Position numbers and translations under genes: made by a program. Below are positions 4,885-53,777 of a DNA stretch of 64,000 nucleotides, in pieces. Origin of the DNA: a virus; the IMG/VR virus record IMGVR_UViG_3300043397_000067, positions 16,015 through 80,014 of that record. The stretch is one strand, 5' to 3'. Numbering within the stretch: the first letter of the stretch is position 1; the number at the start of each line of letters is the position of its first letter. Under the pieces are notes generated by a model, which saw only the letters and a program-made list of their open reading frames with translations, was not told the origin of the DNA and did no database searches.

Positions 4885-4960
4885 GGGACGGTAGCATAAC
4901 GGTTAGTGCCGTGACCTCATAAGTCATAAGGTGTAGGTTCAACTCCTATCCGTCCCACCA
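4885..4960 (+). tRNA. tRNA with CAU anticodon (elongator Met or Ile2)
   Basis: Full cloverleaf: acceptor GGGACGG/CCGTCCC, D stem GCAT/GTGC, anticodon arm GTGAC-CTCATAA-GTCAT, T arm GTAGG-TTCAACT-CCTAT, encoded CCA; 76 nt. Confidence 0.92.
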
Positions 4961-12041: not shown

Positions 12042-14067
12042 ATTTAGGCAGCATGAGTCTAAGGTAGTAAACTTTACATCGGGCCTTAACGTCATCCGTG
12101 GCGCTAACGAAGCAGGCAAGAGTACTATCTTTGAGGCTATCATGTACGCCTTCTACGGGGCACGGGGTCTGCGTGAGTCGTTGGATGATGCCGTGACATG
12201 GGGTAACCCGGCGTCGCAACTCAGGGTTAAGTTAGTGTTCACTCACTTAGGCGTCAAGTTCACCATCACCCGGTCAAAGTCGGGCGCAGAGCTTGTCGGA
12301 CCCGGAGTGACGGCCTCGGGCCAGTCTGAGGTCACCAACTTCGTCACGGCCTTGTTTGGTGCCCCGCTTGACGTTGCCAAGGCCATCCTCATGGCGAAAC
12401 AAGGCGGCTTGCAGGAATCCCTCGACGGCTCTAGTGTACGGATGATTGAGCAACTTGCTAATGTCCAACTGATAGACAAGCTCATTGAGTGGGTGCAGCT
12501 TGACTTGTCTACTGGAAACACTAGCTCGCTGGTCAAGCAACTACAAGACTACCGCGATATGGTAGCCCCAGTGTTAGATACCGCAGAAGCTGACGCTAAA
12601 GTATCTACACTAACTTCCCGAGTTGAGGCAGTTAAAGCAAACCTTGAGTTGGTAGAAGCTAAAATCGCTAACCTGCAGTGGGCACCACCTGTGATAGCAG
12701 CTAGGGCGGACTATAACGCTAAGCGGGAAGCTTTGGATAGTACGCTTACGCGCCTGCAAACTACACTGCCGTCAGTACCAGAGCCGGTAGAAGATAACTC
12801 CAAGGAGTTAGAAGCAGCGGCTGCTGAACAGACTCGCAACAAGGAGCTTCAAGGCAACTACATGAAGTATGCAGCTTTCGTACAGCCTAAAGTCGATAGT
12901 AAATACACATCAAGAAGTGAGGCAGACGCTCACCGTGAGAAACTTCAAGAAGAAATTCGCGCTATTACGAAAGGGTTATCAGATACTAGCACTAAGATAG
13001 CGGTAGAACTATCAAAGAAAATTACAGAAACAGCCTGCGGACTATGCGGTAAAGACTTATCACAGGTGCCAGAAGTTGTAGAGAAGAATAAGGTAATAGA
13101 TAGCACCATCGCGGCCCTTAAGGTTAGTAAAGCTAGCTTAGAGGCAAATCTTAGCGCCTATAACCTGCAACTGAGCGGTTTGATAGAGTTGCTTAAAGCA
13201 GACTCTGCTGCTAGAAATACAGCAGCAGGTATCCCCCACCTTGAGGAATATCCCACCTTTCCTGCCACCTACGGATGGGCTGGCGGTATTCCAGTAGTAA
13301 CTTACGTTGACTATGCAAAACAGTTAAAGGAGCTTACTACAAAGCTTGCACAAAGAGAAGCTGCTTTGCATCAGTATAACAAGGTTCAGACGGCTATAGA
13401 GGTTACTAGGGTCAACATATCAAGGTTGTACAACCCTGTGCAATCAGAAGTTGACATGGCTAATGAAGCATTTGCTGAGTTGACGTTAGCAGCTACACGT
13501 AAGAATGAATCTATTGACGAGCGTAGGCGGCTGGAATCTCAGCTTTCTGAGGCTAGGCACACCCTAGCGATTTTGGAGACGCGCCATACGGAGCAGATGA
13601 AGGCTTTTACACAGGCTCAATCTCAGGCCTCGGTAGTAGAGTCTAGTATCAGGGAGATGACAGATAACAATCTCTTGATTAAGAAGCTGAGGGAAGCAAG
13701 GCCGTCAGTAACTAACCGCTTATGGAATACTGTACTTGGTACAGTAACCAGTTACTTCTCACAACTTCGTGGTGTTCATACAGTAGTAGGGCGTAAAGAT
13801 GACTGCTTCACGCTTGACGGCAAGAAGCATACATCCTATAGTGGTTCTACCCAAGACTGCCTTGGCCTTGCCATTCGTGCTACCCTGCAAAAGACCTTCA
13901 TGGCCGGCTGTGACTTCACCACGTATGACGAGCCTGCAAGTGGGTGTGACTTAGCGCGGGAAAGCGATATGCTAGCGATGCTATCGACTTGTGGGTTTGA
14001 GCAGGTACTGCTCGTCACCCACAGCGACTTAGCAGACGCTTACGCTACTAACTTCATCCAGATATAG
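12016..14067 (+). CDS. SbcC/Rad50-like ABC ATPase
   Basis: Walker A GANEAGKST, coiled coil with CGLC zinc hook, signature YSGS, Walker B/D-loop YDEP, H-loop VTH. Confidence 0.9.
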   Translation: MLNELTLTKFRQHESKVVNFTSGLNVIRGANEAGKSTIFEAIMYAFYGARGLRESLDDAVTWGNPASQLRVKLVFTHLGVKFTITRSKSGAELVGPGVTASGQSEVTNFVTALFGAPLDVAKAILMAKQGGLQESLDGSSVRMIEQLANVQLIDKLIEWVQLDLSTGNTSSLVKQLQDYRDMVAPVLDTAEADAKVSTLTSRVEAVKANLELVEAKIANLQWAPPVIAARADYNAKREALDSTLTRLQTTLPSVPEPVEDNSKELEAAAAEQTRNKELQGNYMKYAAFVQPKVDSKYTSRSEADAHREKLQEEIRAITKGLSDTSTKIAVELSKKITETACGLCGKDLSQVPEVVEKNKVIDSTIAALKVSKASLEANLSAYNLQLSGLIELLKADSAARNTAAGIPHLEEYPTFPATYGWAGGIPVVTYVDYAKQLKELTTKLAQREAALHQYNKVQTAIEVTRVNISRLYNPVQSEVDMANEAFAELTLAATRKNESIDERRRLESQLSEARHTLAILETRHTEQMKAFTQAQSQASVVESSIREMTDNNLLIKKLREARPSVTNRLWNTVLGTVTSYFSQLRGVHTVVGRKDDCFTLDGKKHTSYSGSTQDCLGLAIRATLQKTFMAGCDFTTYDEPASGCDLARESDMLAMLSTCGFEQVLLVTHSDLADAYATNFIQI

Positions 14068-46119: not shown

Positions 46120-47808
46120 TTACGAGTATTCCTTGGGCCTAAACGCTACCAAAAGTGGAGTTCTCCCCGGTTCCGTCCACCCACTTACAGTGCCTAGCAG
46201 GGTAGTAGCAAGGAACATGTACATCAGTGAGAAGAAGTAGTGATCTTGCCCATCAGTCTTCTGCCAACTGAAAACAAGTTCATCATTTTGGAATATCTTA
46301 GTGCGCTTCAAGCTCAAGTAGTGCTCTTGCAGCACACCATCATCTGCTCCCTTTGAGATAAATATCTTATTTTCCTTGAATATCTCAAGCAGCTTATCAA
46401 ATGCAGCAGTACGGTTAATCTTTAGCAAGCGCAAGTTGAGCTTACCCTCTTCTGCATCCTCGTCTTTATCAGCCACAGTGTACATCTGCGGATTCTTGGA
46501 TGTTGTAAACACTGCACCATAAGCATTAGTATCTACTTCGCAGACTGACATAATCTCAGAAACATAAGGTTGTACGTCATGAACTGAGATAACTACCCGG
46601 TATTGGCGTATAAGCTCAAGGCGTCTTTCCCTGAACTTTGATAGTGGCACCATCTCTCTATGCACTACAAGCAACAAGCCTTCGTTAGACAGCCTGCCGA
46701 TAGTCACAGCGCACAGTAAGCCCATGTCAAAGCCCATGAAATGTATAGCACTGCTAGACAAATCCGCTTGTACAAGTGCCTTGCTTATATCCGCTGCCGT
46801 CAACTGCTCATTAGTATCTTCGCTTGTCTCACCTAATACCTGATTTTGCCACTCTGCTCTTGTATTGAACTCCGTACTTGTTCGTACCAAATACGCTGGC
46901 ACAAGCAAGCGGCAAGCAGTGACCGGTGTAACGTAGTGCGTATGTGCTTCATAGTTATCATCTGGGTTTTCTACTACCCACTCAAGTTTTGTAGGGTCAA
47001 GTTGTGGGTCGCGCCTGCAAGCAGGGCACATCCAGTGGGCTTTTTGCCACTGATAGTCCTTGATGTTGTATTTCGTTAACCCTTTAAGGTCATCATAGTA
47101 GCCCGGAATCACAATATCTGTATGGTAACTTGGCAACCACTTATGGCCACAGCAGTTGCATATACCCATGTGGCGTATGCGCTTTGAAGTCTCTGCTTCC
47201 TTAGAAATTCCCACACCTTCTTGTGTAGGAGTACTAAACTGCCTGATAATCTGGTGCTTAGAGGCTTGCAAGCGGCTTCTGAACTGCTTCAAGGTGTCCG
47301 GGTCACATCGGTCTATCTCGTCGGCTACAAGGCAGTCTGCGCTGATAGACAAGGCTGCAGTTTCTGATCTAGTTCCGCGAATAAACAAGAAATTGCCGTT
47401 GATTTCCTTTAACTCTGTAGAGTCTACATTGACGTTTAGCAAGCGCTTAAGGTCAGGACTACCGTAAAGTATGGGATTTACTTTGGTAATTGTCAGTTTT
47501 GTTGCATCATTGGTCGATGGCAAGGCATAAATAACGTTAAACTGTTTTTGTGTAGCAAGGGCAGATAGAAAGTAGCAGATTGTGCTGACAGTCAAGCCGA
47601 TTTGTGCTGGTTTGACTGTGTTCGTTACGCGTGAATCGTCATTAAGAATGGCTCGCTGGAACTCATAACCACCCGTAAAAGACAGCTTTTTGCTCTCTAA
47701 AATGATGTGTTTTTCTGCATAACTTGCTAAATTGTGCAGGTGAAATACGTTATTTAGGCCGTCTTCTATGCGTTTATAGTGGTCATTTAGCACTTCCTGC
47801 CCTTTCAA
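46120..47808 (-). CDS. terL: terminase large subunit (lambda gpA-like ATPase)
   Basis: KPAQIGLT, VADEIDR, FSTPT motifs; CxxC zinc motifs; nuclease GFDMG and DH. Start position uncertain. Confidence 0.9.
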   Translation of the reverse strand: MKGQEVLNDHYKRIEDGLNNVFHLHNLASYAEKHIILESKKLSFTGGYEFQRAILNDDSRVTNTVKPAQIGLTVSTICYFLSALATQKQFNVIYALPSTNDATKLTITKVNPILYGSPDLKRLLNVNVDSTELKEINGNFLFIRGTRSETAALSISADCLVADEIDRCDPDTLKQFRSRLQASKHQIIRQFSTPTQEGVGISKEAETSKRIRHMGICNCCGHKWLPSYHTDIVIPGYYDDLKGLTKYNIKDYQWQKAHWMCPACRRDPQLDPTKLEWVVENPDDNYEAHTHYVTPVTACRLLVPAYLVRTSTEFNTRAEWQNQVLGETSEDTNEQLTAADISKALVQADLSSSAIHFMGFDMGLLCAVTIGRLSNEGLLLVVHREMVPLSKFRERRLELIRQYRVVISVHDVQPYVSEIMSVCEVDTNAYGAVFTTSKNPQMYTVADKDEDAEEGKLNLRLLKINRTAAFDKLLEIFKENKIFISKGADDGVLQEHYLSLKRTKIFQNDELVFSWQKTDGQDHYFFSLMYMFLATTLLGTVSGWTEPGRTPLLVAFRPKEYS

Positions 47809-48154
47809 GTGCTGCTTTATATGCTAACAAGAACTCTTCATGTATAGCTGCATGTGGCTTCAAGGTTTCTAGCAGTACATCTTCAATGATTCTCAAGCGC
47901 CCAGCGTTGTATATATCCGTTTGCTGTTTAGTGATGCTAGCAAGGATAGAAGTAATGGTGTTTAGGGTCTGCGCTTTTTGGTTTAGCGGTGTTTCTGGAT
48001 CGTGCATAACCTCGGATATCAAGGTTTCTGCTCTGTTGTATTGCTTTAGTAGCTCAGTTTCAAGGTTTAGCTCGTTAAAGCTGGTAACCAAGTGTACTTT
48101 TGGTATAACCCTTGGAGTTTCTGGTACGTCGCCTTCAAAATCAATTAGACTCAT
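47783..48154 (-). CDS. probable terminase small subunit
   Basis: Helical 123 aa overlapping the terL start. Confidence 0.55.
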   Translation of the reverse strand: MSLIDFEGDVPETPRVIPKVHLVTSFNELNLETELLKQYNRAETLISEVMHDPETPLNQKAQTLNTITSILASITKQQTDIYNAGRLRIIEDVLLETLKPHAAIHEEFLLAYKAALERAGSAK

Positions 48155-48497
48155 TATCTATCTCCCTTACTTTGTTTACTGCGCGCATCATGGTGTTGTA
48201 GCTTACAAAGGCTATTTTTGCAGCTTGTGATATGCTGTACTTTCCCTTTATTACTTCCCGACCAAGCTCTAATTTCAAGGCTTTACGCGCTTCAATTAAG
48301 GGCTTTTTATTGAATATGGGTTGCTTGCCGGGAAAGACTGAGGATACGTATTTCTCATGCACTCCAAGCTGCTTGGCAAGTTCCCTAGTCGTTATTCTGC
48401 GCTCCCAGAGGTCTTGTCTTTGCTGTTCCGTCGTGCGCGAGGCTACGGTGTCAGGTCGCTTTGGGTTGGCTTTGGGCCATGTCACAGGATATGTCAT
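48141..48497 (-). CDS. basic tandem-HTH DNA-binding protein
   Basis: TTRELAKQLGVHEKYVS and SISQAAKIAFVSYNTM helix-turn-helix patterns. Confidence 0.65.
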   Translation of the reverse strand: MTYPVTWPKANPKRPDTVASRTTEQQRQDLWERRITTRELAKQLGVHEKYVSSVFPGKQPIFNKKPLIEARKALKLELGREVIKGKYSISQAAKIAFVSYNTMMRAVNKVREIDNESN

Positions 48498-48607
48498 TTT
48501 CGGATTGTGCCATAGAATTTTTGGTTTGTGTCGTGTAGGTGTGCATATGTATGTGTTTATAAAAGTTTTAAAATATATTTTGCATTTTTTTGAGGGCTGG
48601 TATGCCG

Positions 48608-48664
48608 CTGTCCACAACTTATCCACAATGTGTATACGTCCAGCTGTGGATAACTTGTGGATAT
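48608..48664. promoter_or_regulatory. cluster of five DnaA boxes
   Basis: CTGTCCACA 48608, TTATCCACA 48619 (perfect), TGTGTATAC 48629, TGTGGATAA 48645 (perfect, reverse), TGTGGATAT 48656. Confidence 0.75.
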
Positions 48665-48842
48665 CATATTAGGGTAAACCCCTATTCCCTAAACGCCGAT
48701 TCTATGTTAGTCGCGCGCCTAGGTGTTAACCCCTAGCACACAATCTGCACCTTGTATATAGGGGTTTGCCCTATGGTGTCCGGACTGTAGTCGTGAGAAT
48801 ATATGGGTGTCGGTTGATCGTAACCGGTGGCCCTAGGGCCGT

Positions 48843-48951: not shown

Positions 48952-49485
48952 ATGCAAACCACAAAATCTATCGCCCTATCTTTTCTCTCTGCAAAACAGC
49001 TGCAAGCGGCCGCAAACTTGGCGGAAATGTCCAGCACTGAACTGACCCTCACGGCCACGGCGGGCCGTGGCGCGGCCCGTAAAGTAGCGGCCCAAATTGT
49101 CGCCGACAATTCATTAGGCGAAGTGCTCGCCCAGTATGAAGCATCCAAATGTTCACGCCCCGAACCGCTGGCCCGGTATGTCCGGGCCTACGTGGGTCAG
49201 TATGAAAGCACGGATAAGCTGCAGGTTTGCCCGTTCAACCGGGCTGGCTTTGAAGCTTACCCACATGCGCTGCAAAGCTGGGCGCTGTCCAGCGAAAACG
49301 AAAAAACGCAGTCGGCCCGGTTGAAAGTGGCCGCGCATGTTGAAAGCGTCGTAAAGCTTGCCGCGCAAGCCTATGACAACATGAAAGCGCAGGAAGCTGC
49401 AGCGCAGGAAGCTGCAGCGCAGGAAGCTGCAGCGCAGGAAGCTGCAGCGCAGGAAGCTGCAGCGCAGGAAGCTGCAACAGCTTGA
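48952..49485 (+). CDS. first early gene, hypothetical with (AQEAA)6 tail
   Basis: AGGAAA RBS; Ala-rich ORF. Confidence 0.6.
   Translation: MQTTKSIALSFLSAKQLQAAANLAEMSSTELTLTATAGRGAARKVAAQIVADNSLGEVLAQYEASKCSRPEPLARYVRAYVGQYESTDKLQVCPFNRAGFEAYPHALQSWALSSENEKTQSARLKVAAHVESVVKLAAQAYDNMKAQEAAAQEAAAQEAAAQEAAAQEAAAQEAATA
49387..49476 (+). repeat. perfect tandem repeat 6 x 15 bp
   Basis: GCGCAGGAAGCTGCA x6. Confidence 0.97.
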
Positions 49486-49508
49486 AACCCGCCGGGCCGC
49501 TATCGGCC

Positions 49509-49549
49509 CGGTTTTCATAGCGGCCCACAGTGGGCCGCTATGAAAACCG
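49509..49549. repeat. 19-bp perfect inverted repeat
   Basis: CGGTTTTCATAGCGGCCCA-CAG-TGGGCCGCTATGAAAACCG. Confidence 0.9.
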
Positions 49550-49560
49550 ATCTTTAAAAA
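49549..49560 (+). promoter_or_regulatory. boxA-like antitermination element
   Basis: GATCTTTAAAAA directly after the long hairpin. Confidence 0.4.
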
Positions 49561-49657
49561 TTCAATGCAAGCTGAAAACCCGCCTTTAGTGGCAGGGATA
49601 AGCACGTCCGGGCCTTAGGTGGTCGCCGGGCGGAAAAGTACACTACGGGAAACCCTA

Positions 49658-49717
49658 CGGGCCGCACCTTAACCGGGCCGCTAGTGACTAACCGGGCCGC
49701 ACCTTAACCGGGCCGCT
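49658..49717 (+). repeat. direct repeats, 4 x CGGGCCGC (25-bp unit duplicated)
   Basis: CGGGCCGCACCTTAACCGGGCCGCT at 49658 and 49693. Confidence 0.9.
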
Positions 49718-50624
49718 CAAATTGTCACACGTAGGGCATACTGGTACAGAATACCGCATTGATGCACACACCGACAACAAACCCTTACGGGGTTGCGCTG
49801 CCGCATGCCTTAAGCGCATGCCTTGCGGCTGTTGTCACAATCCCTTATAGTTGAGTGAACCAAAAGACAATGACATAGAATTTTCTACATCTGAGAATGT
49901 AGGGTTAGCGGGCTAGATTAGCGGCGCGACACGGTGAAAATACGGACTTTCATTTTACAATGTCATATACTGTTGACGCATAGCTGTGAAGCTATACCCC
50001 ATAAATCAGAATAACGGATTAGGGCCTATTTGCGGCCCTAGGCGCGTTGCGTTATAGCCACGCCGTCGAAAAAGTTGTCTAGTAGCTCCTGAGAGTAGGT
50101 GCGTCTGGCTTTGCGTCATTGCGGGCTGGGCTTTCGGTATGTATAGACTCCCTCCCACGTTGTAGACCTTTGCGGAATGCCTCCGCTATAGGTGGGCGTG
50201 GTTACAGTTTATATTGCAGATAGGGTAGGGATGCGAAGCGGACTTAGCAAATACGGCATAGTGACAGTGTGCCTCATGTTGCGGGAACTCATTAAGTCAA
50301 AATCCCGTTCTAGTGGTCGGATAGAGTAGACCAACGCTTATCAGTCTTGCGGAATAGACTTAACCTTAACCCTTAACGCCTTTGCGGAGGGTCTCCGATA
50401 CACGGACGGCCCTCCAGCTCGGCGTTAACGCCCCACGTTGGCGCAAAATTACGATCAAGCGTGAAAAACGCTGCAACCTTCTAGGCCTTCAATGGCTTTG
50501 CGGTATGTCTGCCCTTTGCGGTAGAGCAAACCATCATGCCCACTCTTGTAGTGGGCATTTTAGTTTGTGGGTCTTGCCCTGATACTAAAGGGATTACGGC
50601 TATTTGCCGACTTACGGATTTATC

Positions 50625-50828
50625 ATGTCAGTATCAAGTATCGCTCATTCCATCGCAGCCGTCTGGAATGGGTCAGCACTCCAGACAGAGTGCTTTTATA
50701 CCGGTATTCGGGCAGATATTGCCCATTCCTTGCGGATTGCCCCTAACAGGGCGGACTTCAATGCAGCTTTCGATCTGCTTTCGTGGTATCAGTCCGGTGA
50801 CGGACTGCTTTACTGCACCCTAGATTAA
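50625..50828 (+). CDS. hypothetical protein (67 aa)
   Basis: ATG after a weak GGA; lies between hairpin elements. Confidence 0.4.
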   Translation: MSVSSIAHSIAAVWNGSALQTECFYTGIRADIAHSLRIAPNRADFNAAFDLLSWYQSGDGLLYCTLD

Positions 50829-50874
50829 CAGGGTCTTGCACGTTCCCTTTAATGTGCTATTGATAGGAGTTGCC

Positions 50875-51087
50875 ATGTTGCAACAAAGATTGGACCGGAT
50901 TAACACCCGGATTGTGGAAATCACTCCGGCCTTGTCTAAGGCTTGGGAAGACATGGTAGCCGCTAAGGCTGACCGTGACCCAACGCACCCGCTGTACAAG
51001 GCGTGGAAGGCTATCGACCTCAAGGACAGCCAGCTGCGTGAAACGCGCTCTGATCTTGAGTTCGAGCTTGAGTGCTTGGAAGACTGA
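50875..51087 (+). CDS. small helical early protein ending CLED
   Basis: AGGAG RBS. Confidence 0.65.
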   Translation: MLQQRLDRINTRIVEITPALSKAWEDMVAAKADRDPTHPLYKAWKAIDLKDSQLRETRSDLEFELECLED

Positions 51088-51395
51088 CAGGGCCAGTTAC
51101 ATAGCAGCGCGCTGCTATGTTGCGGGTATTGTTGCCCTAACTTGAAAGGAAGTGTTATGAAACACCAAGACATTATCAAGGCTGTCAAGGCACAGCACTT
51201 GCTTGAGTGTGCCAAGCTCAACATGCTCGACTATAACAAGTTGAGTCTTATCATTGCTATTGCTTGCAATATTGCGGCAGATGTGACGCAACTGCGTCAG
51301 CTTTCGTTGTTCTTGCAGTGCTTGGAAGACTGACAGGGCCAGTAATAGGGCATATGCCCTATTGCGGGGATTGTCCCTAACTTGAGAGGAATATC
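51071..51395 (+). repeat. duplicated intergenic cassette boundary
   Basis: 27-bp AGTGCTTGGAAGACTGACAGGGCCAGT at 51071 and 51317, each followed by a perfect palindrome and CCCTAACTTGARAGGAA. Confidence 0.9.
51157..51333 (+). CDS. small early protein ending CLED
   Basis: AAGGAAG RBS. Confidence 0.6.
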   Translation: MKHQDIIKAVKAQHLLECAKLNMLDYNKLSLIIAIACNIAADVTQLRQLSLFLQCLED

Positions 51396-51542
51396 ATGAG
51401 AATTCTTATGTCTGTTATCGGAGTCGTAGCCATTCCTATGGCTTCGCTTGGGTCTTTGTTCAGCGTTATGACGCTGGCTGAGTGCGGTCTGCTGCTGACC
51501 ATCGCAGTCTTTTGCTGCTGTTTCGGAACGATTGGAGACTGA
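51396..51542 (+). CDS. small membrane protein (48 aa; not in ORF track)
   Basis: GAGGA RBS; MRILMSVIGVVAIPM... two hydrophobic helices. Confidence 0.55.
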   Translation: MRILMSVIGVVAIPMASLGSLFSVMTLAECGLLLTIAVFCCCFGTIGD

Positions 51543-51545
51543 GCC

Positions 51546-51830
51546 ATGAAACCATTTGAAATACGTGCCAAGCTCAAGGAAATGGGCTTCAAGGAAGACC
51601 GCTACGGCAACATGCTTACCCCCAAAGGTAAGTACCGCATACACTTCAACTCTATCTCTTTGCGGGTAGAGAAGAAGCGCCAATGGGTAGACCATTTCAC
51701 GCAGAAAACCCAATCCGACTGGCAAAACCTGCGTACCGTCTACTACACCAACACTGTCATCCAAGACGGTGTGCTGCGTCTGGGCACTCTCGAACTCAAG
51801 GATTATGCTGCTACTGCTGTGGCTGCTTAG
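51546..51830 (+). CDS. hypothetical protein
   Basis: GGAG RBS; 94 aa, basic. Confidence 0.65.
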   Translation: MKPFEIRAKLKEMGFKEDRYGNMLTPKGKYRIHFNSISLRVEKKRQWVDHFTQKTQSDWQNLRTVYYTNTVIQDGVLRLGTLELKDYAATAVAA

Positions 51831-52226
51831 CCTAGACACAACGCATACATTGCGTCCTGTATGGAAGGTGCTTACTACACCCACCTTCCATAACATACAT
51901 CAGCACAGATTTTCGGTGTCTGTTAGCTGAGAGAATACAACCAGAGTACAGGGCTTGCCGGTTTACGCGACGGCAAGCCCGCTTTCGTTTGGGTCCTCAG
52001 GGTCTCAAACGAAAACTAACCAGTTCGTACATTTTGCCGCGCACGTAAGATCGTCAGCACACTGATTATCCAAATTTGCGGATTCTGCACGGCCTTAAGC
52101 AAGTTCCGTGCCAGCAAAGTTTCGCGCAAAAATTTCTAATTTGCAGATTTTTGCAAATCTAGCCCTTCCCGTGCATACTTTTGCATATTTGTTACAATTT
52201 TCCCTAACCATAATGGTGGTATTTTT

Positions 52227-52412
52227 ATGTCCTTCGATAACGAAGACCGTGCATTAGCAAGGTCTTTAGCTCAGGCTGCTGGTACTAACAAGTCAAGAGC
52301 CGCTAACGCTAAAAGACGCACAATCAAGAAAGCAGCCCAACGTATAGGCTTTCTGCCCAAGCAGCCCAATATGCGTACACTGCAACGCATCTTCTTTCAC
52401 TTTGCGGAGTAA
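52227..52412 (+). CDS. small basic protein
   Basis: Follows CATAAT/GGTGG; K/R-rich. Confidence 0.5.
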   Translation: MSFDNEDRALARSLAQAAGTNKSRAANAKRRTIKKAAQRIGFLPKQPNMRTLQRIFFHFAE

Positions 52413-52414
52413 CC

Positions 52415-52603
52415 ATGCGCCTCATTCGCACCCTCTCAAACGATAAAGCCGAAGTCAAAATCTACAAAGACGACGGCGAATTCGTATGCAAGTTGACTGG
52501 TAACCCTGCTGCCGGCTACTTCACTGATGACTGGCAAGATGCAGAGGGCACTGCCAAGCACATGCTGGCCGCACAGGAAATCAAGCTCTGTAAAGCGCAT
52601 TAA
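52415..52603 (+). CDS. hypothetical protein (YFTDD..DA..TA motif)
   Basis: GGAG RBS; recurrent small phage protein motif. Confidence 0.6.
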   Translation: MRLIRTLSNDKAEVKIYKDDGEFVCKLTGNPAAGYFTDDWQDAEGTAKHMLAAQEIKLCKAH

Positions 52604-52955
52604 ACTCTCTGGTATTTGCGGAAAGACTAGCGCCTACAAGTGCTAGCCAAAGGCACTCCCTCTACCTGTGCCTTACACAACCCACAAGCCAGAACAAACC
52701 GCCTACCAAGTGTTTTGCGGTCTTTCCCTCTTCCAGAAAAAGAACTAGAAGAGTAAATAATAAAAATAACAGAATAATTCTATATAATACCTTCTGAGAT
52801 TCTAGTTATTTTTACGGGCGGTCGTAGCAGCTTTTTTTTTGAGTCCAAAATTTTTTACATTTTGTACCCTCAAACCCGTCCCCGTAAATATATCCAGAAA
52901 TCCTGACTGTTCTATCCAGAGTTCAGAACTTTAATAGCTCCAAGTAGGAAATAAT

Positions 52956-53777
52956 ATGGAAAAAGCCCGCTTGTATAACCGACAAGTCGCTACGGTAGGT
53001 ACAATAGTTAAGAACTACCACATCCGGGAGAAGCTTCCACAGAAAGACATATCGGGGTGCAGAGTGCTGCGCCTTGAGTGTGAGTTCTGCAAGGCCCAGC
53101 TAAAATTGAGCTTGTACGAGCTTTTGCGGAGAAAGAGCATCTGCATATGCAGAAAGCAAGACGCCGAGCCAAAGGCAACCACGACCATAGTCCTTGCCCT
53201 GCCGCAAAGCCGCTTGCACTCTTTCAAGCTTGACTACAGGATAAGCCTTGAAAACCGCCTGCAACGTATGCTGCAAAAGACCACAACCCTGAAAGACATA
53301 GGCTACGAGAACATCACAGTCTATGAGATCGTGGGAGACTTGCTGAGAAAAATAGGCAACTTGAAGGACATACTTGAAGCGCCACCAATAAAAAAGCCGG
53401 GAAGGCCGAGAAAGAATCCCGTTCTTATATCCGAACCCGACACAGGCATCAAAGAACTTGAGGTTCAGCCACCACCGCTACCCCAAGAGCCAGAACCACC
53501 AAAAGAAGAACTATCTTGGCCGTCCTTCCTACTTGAAGACCCAGCGGACTATATCTGGTTCACGGCCCAAGCCCCACAAAACCGCTTCCCTCCAAAGTAC
53601 ATCACCGACTGGGTGGAAGAAGCAAACTACGACCCCAAGACCTCAAAGCTGTTTTCCGTAGCCACAGAAGAAGGCCTAAGGGTCCACTACAAGACCTTGC
53701 CAAGAGAAGAAGCGCCAGCAGTATCCTCAAGGATGCCCACTTGGAGCTTTGATGATGACGACGATACCCCATTTTAA
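52956..53777 (+). CDS. Zn-ribbon / AT-hook protein with SSB-like acidic tail
   Basis: CEFC...CIC, KKPGRPRK, C-terminus FDDDDDTPF. Confidence 0.6.
   Translation: MEKARLYNRQVATVGTIVKNYHIREKLPQKDISGCRVLRLECEFCKAQLKLSLYELLRRKSICICRKQDAEPKATTTIVLALPQSRLHSFKLDYRISLENRLQRMLQKTTTLKDIGYENITVYEIVGDLLRKIGNLKDILEAPPIKKPGRPRKNPVLISEPDTGIKELEVQPPPLPQEPEPPKEELSWPSFLLEDPADYIWFTAQAPQNRFPPKYITDWVEEANYDPKTSKLFSVATEEGLRVHYKTLPREEAPAVSSRMPTWSFDDDDDTPF

Follow-up and report, generated by a model that had tools for sequence, protein, structure and literature searches.

A non-coding stretch with conserved hairpins, promoter-like sites and a polar hexamer array ahead of the early genes of an uncultured freshwater phage

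A non-coding stretch between gene 1 and the early genes

We analyzed a window of 64,000 nucleotides of phage DNA that corresponds to bases 16015-80014 of an 80,014-bp IMG/VR record from a freshwater metagenome (IMGVR_UViG_3300043397_000067). The subject of this report is the stretch at window positions 49486-50620, which lies between the first rightward gene of the phage, here called gene 1, and the first of its early open reading frames (ORFs). A preliminary description had proposed that this stretch is a single large phage non-coding RNA (ncRNA). We find that the region is a functional, partly RNA-structured composite and not one large folded RNA. It carries two small hairpins that are kept across distantly related phages, one of which resembles the boxB element of phage lambda, and it may serve as a control region and leader of the early operon. 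The features of the stretch and its borders are as follows.

48952-49485, + strand: gene 1, the first rightward gene, encoding a low-complexity protein that ends in six QEAAA repeats
49494-49549, + strand: double hairpin directly 3' of the gene 1 stop codon (fold z-score, -7.45)
49658-49717, + strand: CGGGCCGC repeats, with two perfect 25-nt direct repeats 35 nt apart
49823-49851, + strand: promoter-like site P1 (TTGCGG, 17 nt, TATAGT)
49823-53129, + strand: TTGCGG array, 19 copies plus 7 TTACGG/TTTCGG variants, all on the + strand
50030-50058, + strand: promoter-like site P2 (TTGCGG, 17 nt, TATAGC)
50119-50147, + strand: promoter-like site P3 (TTGCGG, 17 nt, TATAGA)
50307-50337, + strand: hairpin HP-A (GUUCUAG, a 5-bp stem with the 10-nt loop GGAUAGAGUA, then CGC)
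50373-50428, + strand: longer imperfect hairpin TTAACGCC...GGCGTTAA, enclosing one TTGCGG and seen in this phage only
50458-50472, + strand: boxB-like hairpin AGCGU-GAAAA-ACGCU (5-bp stem, GAAAA pentaloop, U-A closing pair)
50536-50567, + strand: terminator-like hairpin (9-bp stem, 5-nt loop, then the T-rich TTTAGTTTG)
50625-50828, + strand: first early ORF (67 amino acids), with one 91%-identical homologue cluster in public assemblies

The longest ORF inside the stretch is 66 amino acids, and nothing similar to its six-frame pieces turns up in any related phage, which bears out its description as ORF-free. In two sets of near-relative contigs (runs X3 and X9; 91-95% identical), the non-coding core has diverged by 4.6% and 2.5%, respectively, compared with 12-15% for gene 1 and the downstream early ORFs of the same contigs. 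The core is the best-conserved DNA of its neighborhood in these near relatives, indicating that the stretch is under stronger constraint than its neighbors. Taken over runs X2, X3 and X9, contigs with identities of 85-97% are present. Several ORFs of 31-66 amino acids can be drawn in the stretch, as would be expected if it consisted of tiny or decayed ORFs lined up one after another and had no role itself, but the six-frame pieces resemble nothing in relatives, the flanking genes are less well conserved in near relatives, and some of its elements are kept in phages whose large terminase (TerL) is 31% identical to that of this phage. We find that explanation scarcely credible.

Relatives were gathered by TerL-based searches (three sets), and one further relative, L207, was added later by a motif scan. 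Three of them (L003, L004 and L005) are about 92% identical to this phage in DNA sequence up to window position 48804, and the TerL of L003 is about 100% identical; past this position, both gene 1 and the DNA that follows it differ from those of this phage. At the TerL level, L006, L007, L008 and L010, the last of which is the phage referred to here as G001, are 57% identical to this phage, L009 is 35% identical, and L207 is 31% identical. G001 is 78.4 kb long and collinear with this phage, yet almost nothing is common to the two across about 25 kb of early genes. The few proteins that they share include a helix-turn-helix (HTH) protein, a protein resembling the small terminase TerS, and a 955-amino acid primase. 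Four further lineages show the same order of gene 1, a double hairpin, and a long ORF-free stretch. That stretch is 0.8-1.1 kb long and runs into small ORFs in G001, L007 and L207; the L003 contig stops about 460 nt past the gene 1 stop codon. Wider searches added little to this set. A nucleotide search of GenBank phages with positions 49000-51200 gave no match, IMG/VR scans in which the first early ORF and two early proteins served as queries gave zero relatives, and a TerL scan of metagenome contigs gave only short additions, all of which lack the upstream region.

Gene 1 itself differs from lineage to lineage (L003, 463-1437 on the - strand; L010, 7441-8199 on the - strand; L007, 1920-2507 on the - strand; L207, 6224-6979). 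Its products carry six QEAAA repeats, long Ala/Gln/Glu runs, Lys/Ala/Glu runs, or seven PAAAT repeats, and these proteins have no detectable homology between lineages and no match to a Pfam or PHROG family. In this phage, a 15-nt tandem repeat at 49386-49475 encodes the end of gene 1, and assemblies break there. Despite the differing proteins, gene 1 occupies the same position in every lineage and is followed by the same type of double hairpin. Hairpin 1 (49494-49512) has a 6-bp stem that leads into a U-run, as in an intrinsic terminator, and hairpin 2 has perfect 20-nt arms (49509-49528 and 49530-49549). This two-hairpin design recurs in unrelated sequence after gene 1 of L003, L010 and L007 (z = -4.5 to -8.6) and can also be read from the sequence 3' of gene 1 in L207. 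We read the double hairpin as a putative bipartite intrinsic terminator of gene 1. On this reading, the 5' pairings from which a large RNA was proposed would belong to the terminator of the upstream gene.

All of the pairings on which that proposal was based are present in the sequence. The stretch is hairpin-dense at its edges only, and it folds better than shuffled sequence only at its two ends and in its last third. The middle, at 49600-50300, folds like the average of the genome. When folding was compared with that of shuffled sequences in 200-nt windows, z-scores of -6.4 and -4.9 were obtained at 49401-49700, where the perfect 20-bp palindrome after gene 1 lies, and a z-score of -4.5 was obtained at 50501-50700, at the terminator-like hairpin. 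For the twelve windows of the core (49600-50500) the mean is -0.48, compared with -0.80 (standard deviation 1.22) for 67 random windows of the genome. Perfect 7-bp inverted repeats are about as frequent in the core as in shuffles (7 versus 6.7), and the segment 49860-50300 shows no excess folding (z = -0.26). The following segment, 50300-50535, has modest structure on the + strand (z = -3.7, versus -1.7 on the - strand), and the 491 nt at 50150-50640 reach z = -4.0 to -4.8, which is at the edge of the control distribution for that length (mean -1.45, standard deviation 1.65, minimum -4.2). Thus, unlike large structured ncRNAs, the stretch does not fold beyond shuffles over most of its length. 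Scans against Rfam 15 at gathering and permissive E-value thresholds found nothing relevant in the stretch or its relatives, including no covariance-model match to GOLLD, ROOL, HEARO, OLE and similar families, and the stretch contains no tRNA or tmRNA. What survives of the proposed large ncRNA is its last ~330 nt, with two conserved hairpins and the terminator-like hairpin, along with a well-conserved core. The central 700 nt behave like shuffles, the 5' end is accounted for by the gene 1 terminator, and Rfam is blank. Moreover, with three promoter-like sites inside the stretch, no single transcript would span it. The original observation is therefore partly confirmed, and its interpretation as a large ncRNA is partly supported.

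Conserved hairpins and promoter-like sites

HP-A, with its GGAUAGAGU loop, occurs once in this phage, once in G001 and twice in L207. The stems differ (UGGUC, UUGCG, CGGCC and CUGCC), each being accompanied by its complement. In the alignment of the four copies, 100% of the cells are paired, and four of the five pairs have changed on both sides. The resulting covariation score is 0.93, compared with 0.375 in shuffles, none of 500 of which reach 0.93, and with at most 0.27 when the partners are slid. A covariance model built from HP-A finds these four copies only in 277 kb, and matches to an exact-pattern scan of IMG/VR are restricted to these phages. The compensatory changes in the stem point to a fold of a single strand and not to a binding site in duplex DNA. 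A second, variable hairpin lies 0-1 nt past HP-A and is not in register between lineages.

In lambda nutR, the boxB hairpin consists of a GAAAA pentaloop on a 5-bp stem whose closing pair is U-A. The 15-nt hairpin at 50458-50472 has this form and conforms to the general pattern of nut-site boxB elements, in which a U-A-closed 5-bp stem carries a GNRNA-type pentaloop (GAAAA, GAAGA or GACAA). Hairpins of this type number only three in the 80-kb genome. Sequence identity across this hairpin extends over 17 nt in L007 and 21 nt in L207, and there is no other nucleotide similarity there; the 20-25 nt immediately upstream differ completely among the window, L007 and L207. A scan with the 15-nt core returned many unrelated contigs, among which only L007's own contig and L207 are related. 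In this phage and in L207, a hairpin with a T-run follows 45-65 nt past the boxB-like hairpin, and a ribosome-binding site (RBS) and an ATG come next. In this phage, that hairpin is the one at 50536-50567, which has the sequence characteristics of an intrinsic terminator and lies 58 nt before the first early ATG (50625). The corresponding hairpin and T-run before the first ORF of L207 are clear, and those of L010 are weak.

Upstream of these hairpins, TATAG occurs exactly 17 nt past the three most upstream TTGCGG copies and past no other copy in the genome. The three resulting sites, P1-P3, have the -35-like and -10-like hexamers 16-18 bp apart that are expected of sigma-70-type promoters, and one TTGCGG copy of G001 has TATCGC at the same 17-nt spacing. 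The P1-P3 spacers are unrelated to one another, which is the signature of -35/-10 promoters. Three TTGCGG copies may therefore serve as -35 boxes, the other copies lacking a -10 partner. A scan of IMG/VR for the architecture running from P3 to the next box gave no match. Farther upstream, between the gene 1 terminator and P1, lies the CGGGCCGC block, in which four CGGGCCGC words spaced 16-19 nt apart are bounded by CCCTACG/CGTAGGG (49658-49717). The word occurs eight times in the window against 0.98 expected, with five of the eight copies at 49493-49716. This block is not conserved in relatives; its iteron- or operator-like organization suggests that it is probably a protein-binding site.

The conserved order of gene 1 with its terminator, an ORF-free stretch, hairpins, a terminator, an RBS and an ATG, taken together with the promoter-like sites, suggests a promoter-leader-terminator switch. 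We propose, with confidence that is evenly divided for and against, that the stretch is the cis-acting control region of the rightward early operon together with its long 5' leader, and that it operates as such a switch by antitermination. The bipartite terminator would close the separate transcription unit of gene 1, and the CGGGCCGC repeat block, as a probable protein-binding site, would come next. Three tandem sigma-70-type promoters with TTGCGG as their -35 element would then start early transcripts at approximately 49860, 50065 and 50155. The resulting untranslated leader of 390-700 nt would carry HP-A and the boxB-like hairpin and would close with the intrinsic-terminator-like hairpin directly upstream of the first early ORF. 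The leader hairpins would either bring in a factor or act directly on RNA polymerase, leading to read-through into the early genes by processive antitermination of the nut/N or put type. We accordingly read the last ~330-470 nt of the stretch as a probable structured 5' leader that mediates terminator read-through. TTGCGG words would form a second layer, present in one sub-lineage only, with three of them acting as -35 boxes. Among known systems, the antitermination leaders of early operons offer the best description of the stretch as a whole, which would be a variant of these with a polar hexamer array added.

Comparison with known systems shows both likenesses and differences. As in the lambda nut/N system, a boxB-form hairpin would sit in an early leader, with promoter-like sites upstream and a terminator-like hairpin and early genes downstream, and it is invariant across the distant relatives that carry it. 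Unlike in lambda, there is no conserved boxA, no N-like arginine-rich protein was recognized among the small ORFs, there is one site instead of two, and the stem sequence differs. The phage here is ~80 kb and not lambdoid; it encodes a DNA polymerase, a primase and SbcCD of its own, and no repressor/Cro module was noticed in it. The put elements of HK022, which are approximately 70 nt long, and other cis-acting antiterminators likewise consist of small adjacent stem-loops in an early leader before a terminator, and they offer a model in which the hairpins could act without a phage protein; HP-A and its neighbor, however, occupy only ~45 nt and have no sequence or Rfam similarity to put. The tandem early promoters A1-A3 of T7 lie at the leading end of a virulent phage. 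Here, too, several same-direction, host-type promoter-like sites lie in non-coding DNA that heads the early region, but these are predicted sites, their -35 element is TTGCGG instead of TTGACA, and a long structured leader and terminator follow them.

Several observations weigh against an antitermination leader. HP-A is based on four sequences from three lineages, and the two conserved hairpins do not always occur together: L007 has the boxB-like hairpin and no HP-A, and G001 has HP-A and no boxB-like hairpin. The small leader hairpins taken alone are thermodynamically unremarkable. A boxA resembling CGCUCUUUA is not conserved upstream of the boxB-like hairpin, where a loose CGC....UUA is found in the window only. 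No credible N-like arginine-rich protein emerged from a scan of the small ORFs, although such proteins evolve fast and the contigs are short, and no early protein is common to the phages that carry the shared hairpin. With regard to the promoter-like sites, consensus promoter matches are not enriched (6 versus 4.7 in shuffles), and the pairing with TATAG was noticed post hoc, with p ~0.015 after a rough correction for all pentamers and offsets.

What had been a mystery 1-kb non-coding gap is now divided into testable parts. Two small RNA elements are kept across phages with almost fully diverged proteins, one of them, in a non-lambdoid phage, resembling lambda boxB. Should the two mediate antitermination, nut-like control would extend far beyond the lambdoid phages, and the stretch would constitute a compact regulatory cassette.

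The TTGCGG array

TTGCGG is the top 6-mer of the stretch, with nine copies against 0.34 expected, and the remaining copies of the array lie between and inside the small early ORFs. TTACGG and TTTCGG are likewise enriched on the + strand only. The spacing of the TTGCGG copies is irregular (12-416 nt), they have no extended flanking consensus, and the array extends 2.6 kb into coding DNA. Their density is approximately 13 per kb in the non-coding DNA and falls off by 4.4 kb. By inspection, copies inside ORFs are mostly in frame as Leu-Arg, and some copies lie directly upstream of several early start codons. Some overlap arms of the leader hairpins, namely HP-A in G001 and the hairpin after HP-A in this phage. 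The word had been described as recurring at loop/stem junctions; the recurrence is borne out, and a preference for local hairpins or junctions is not seen in the window (permutation p = 0.63; p = 0.02 in L010).

The only TTGCGG cluster of G001 lies at the same map position and comprises 18 one-strand copies in 1.5 kb, 13 of which fall within a 450-nt non-coding segment. In L007, the leader contains two copies and the next 600 nt contain five more. The leader of L207 has zero copies, suggesting that the word is a lineage-specific layer and not part of the conserved leader function. Within this phage, sense TTGCGG is rare in the late genes (14090-48600, 34.5 kb), with one copy against 8.3 expected under a first-order model or 3.8 under a fourth-order model. 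Outside the cluster, the early/replication arm has 16 copies on the + strand and 15 on the - strand, and the late arm has three and one, respectively. Scanning for TTGCGG triplets brought up nothing beyond repeats in coding sequence and iteron families that are unrelated and have a longer consensus.

Two occurrences of the word elsewhere in relatives are recorded here as separate observations. L207 has seven TTGCGG copies on the + strand and none on the other, all within its leftward terminase and portal genes. In L008, seven head-to-tail CCGCAA hexamers at 13027-13063 of the reverse complement are probably a coding repeat.

As to the nature of the word, a sigma-54 or sigma-32 element was rejected by inspection, the required partner elements being absent. 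A T7-like phage-polymerase promoter was rejected since no 20-nt block is conserved and the block that is conserved at 48787-48804 occurs only once, and a CRISPR-repeat mimic was rejected for want of a constant repeat unit. Three interpretations of the array remain: a promoter or regulator box along the path of early transcription, a protein-binding word in RNA, and a Chi-like polar signal. The host decides which of these applies, and the array would accordingly be a new early-promoter/regulator box, an RNA-binding platform, or an example of end-clustered Chi sites.

The Chi-like interpretation concerns the array only and is compatible with the antitermination leader proposed above. It holds that TTGCGG is a polar DNA signal for a host helicase-nuclease of the RecBCD/AddAB type, lying just inside a free cos end, where it would halt degradation and promote recombination. 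It depends on the position of the array relative to three leftward genes.

46120-47808, - strand: large terminase TerL, lambda gpA-type (PF05876)
47783-48154, - strand: small gene near TerL
48141-48586, - strand: HTH gene

The cluster begins about 1 kb from the divergent region that adjoins these lambda gpA-type terminase genes. The word behaves as a Chi-like signal might, being short, free of flanking consensus, irregularly spaced, strictly confined to one strand, and present in coding and non-coding DNA alike, and both the word and its map position recur in G001 despite complete turnover of the surrounding genes. Terminally clustered Chi sites are known in the lambdoid phages LLS and MD8 (Genome Res 2025, PMC12315714), and lambdoid cos phages without recombination modules carry 20-32 one-orientation Chi sites that are concentrated opposite the terminase end (PMC12315714). 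Like these published precedents, the phage described here combines a large terminase of the lambda type with a one-orientation short word near the inferred cos end that lies opposite its terminase genes, and it has no recognizable recombination module, no recombinase, annealing protein or Gam-like gene being detected in it with PHROGs. It differs in that the published cases are biased in orientation genome-wide, whereas here there is no bias outside the cluster (16 versus 15), and in that ~13 copies per kb of non-coding DNA is far denser than in those cases (PMC12315714). TTGCGG is not a known Chi, half of the copies lie in non-coding DNA, and a -10-like element follows each of the three copies farthest upstream at 17 nt. 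With a lambda-like packaging geometry, moreover, the strand that is read would carry CCGCAA, unlike the G-rich Chi words known from other bacteria. Finally, the cos position is deduced from gene order and the gpA-type TerL, and a search of 185,579 species genomes with TerL, as a single sequence and then as an alignment, found no prophage relative; no host genes were recovered from G003, which is labelled 'provirus'. On balance we consider a Chi-like role unlikely; if it were true, the Chi word of the host, an uncultured freshwater bacterium, would be readable from the array.

Sense-strand specificity and the copies just 5' of several early start codons would also suit a word that acts in RNA. 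According to this explanation, the transcript running from P1-P3 to approximately 50560 is a stand-alone ncRNA of 0.4-0.7 kb whose UUGCGG words, six to eight in number, titrate an RNA-binding protein or act as a scaffold for one. The segment is indeed ORF-free, is bracketed by promoter-like sites and the terminator-like hairpin, and is better conserved than the neighboring genes in near relatives, and the scarcity of the sense word in late genes (relative to the first-order expectation) fits as well. Many one-strand copies of a short word in a non-coding stretch are likewise a feature of the CsrB/RsmY/RsmZ sponges, but the words here are not in hairpin loops, being enriched neither there nor at hairpin junctions, and there is no gathering-score Rfam match to this type: RsmW scores 31.5 bits against a threshold of 52, and the match falls on the gene 1 terminator. 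The segment 49860-50300 shows no excess folding, three of the copies lie upstream of the predicted transcription starts, and no candidate binding protein is conserved. Given that the L207 leader lacks the word and that L007 has only two copies in its leader, the conserved leader function would be independent of TTGCGG. For the multivalent sponge of the preliminary description, this means that the array is real and polar, but that it is not associated with loops, runs into coding DNA, and is missing from the L207 leader. We therefore regard a stand-alone ncRNA as quite unlikely. We would be similarly surprised by a combined arrangement, in which HP-A and the boxB-like hairpin are an undescribed leader module controlling early transcription in widespread uncultured ~80-kb freshwater phages, and in which the 9-13 UUGCGG words of one sub-lineage make the terminated leader double as an RNA that titrates a host or phage RNA-binding protein.

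The repeated short words also raise the possibility of a replication origin or packaging site, in which CGGGCCGC or TTGCGG would be iterons for the primase-helicase or for the HTH or small-terminase proteins. P1 has hexamer arrays in its pac site and P4 has octamer iterons in its origin, the words here lie in ORF-free DNA adjoining the terminase operon, and the HTH protein, the TerS-like protein and the primase are among the few that are shared with G001. The array, however, has irregular spacing and a single orientation and reaches well into coding DNA, and the CGGGCCGC block is absent from relatives as a conserved element. The GC content of 0.43-0.66 across the stretch leaves no AT-rich unwinding element, and the compensatory changes in HP-A point to a single-stranded fold. 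We judge an origin or packaging site to be very unlikely.

Neighboring genes and other repeats

The antitermination leader proposed above would stand at the head of the early arm in a divergent layout. Late genes lie on the - strand and include those for a 2230-amino acid tape-measure-like protein, the capsid, the portal and the terminase, and small early ORFs begin on the + strand at 48952 and continue across the contig ends into the replication genes. With late genes running leftward and early genes rightward, the point of divergence falls between the terminase operon and the early arm, and the ORF-free stretch lies ~0.9 kb to its right. The replication genes encode the primase (955 amino acids), a family-A DNA polymerase, SbcCD, a ligase and a thymidylate synthase. 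PHROGs matches in the window together with L147 (contig bases 1-16014) include an RtcB-type RNA ligase, thymidylate synthase and an ATP-dependent DNA ligase, and further matches are to a MazG-like pyrophosphohydrolase, a Holliday-junction resolvase and a T7-lysozyme-like amidase. A tRNA-Met gene is located at window positions 4885-4960.

Among the small early ORFs, an intergenic module is duplicated at 51071-51151 and 51317-51391, ahead of two consecutive ORFs. Each copy consists of an ORF end, a palindromic hairpin, TTGCGGG, ATTGT, CCCTAAC, an RBS and an ATG, and a third, partial copy lies inside the first early ORF at 50730-50747.

Additional repeats surround the divergent region. A 17-nt inverted repeat (94% complementary) at 48611-48661, adjoining the start of the HTH gene on its upstream side, has the perfect DnaA-box word TTATCCACA on both arms; it is missing from L003 and L004, where the alignment has a 27-nt gap. 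In the divergent intergenic region at 48674-48768, (T/A)AACCCCTA occurs three times, twice in direct and once in inverted orientation, and a 19-nt block lies 3' of them at 48787-48804. Both the copies and the block are kept in L003 and L004 up to the end of homology at 48804, and they are candidate cosB-like sites, operators or a gene 1 promoter.

Other lineages have repeats of their own in the corresponding DNA. In the early region of L207 (6980-9607), CCGACAACG and CGTTGTCGG are enriched in both orientations (GACAACG, five copies in each). The contigs of the closest IMG/VR relatives end in approximately 12 tandem copies of the 12-nt word CTCTGGCCGTGC (L003 1-150, reverse strand), and this array lies some 300 nt past their gene 1 terminator.

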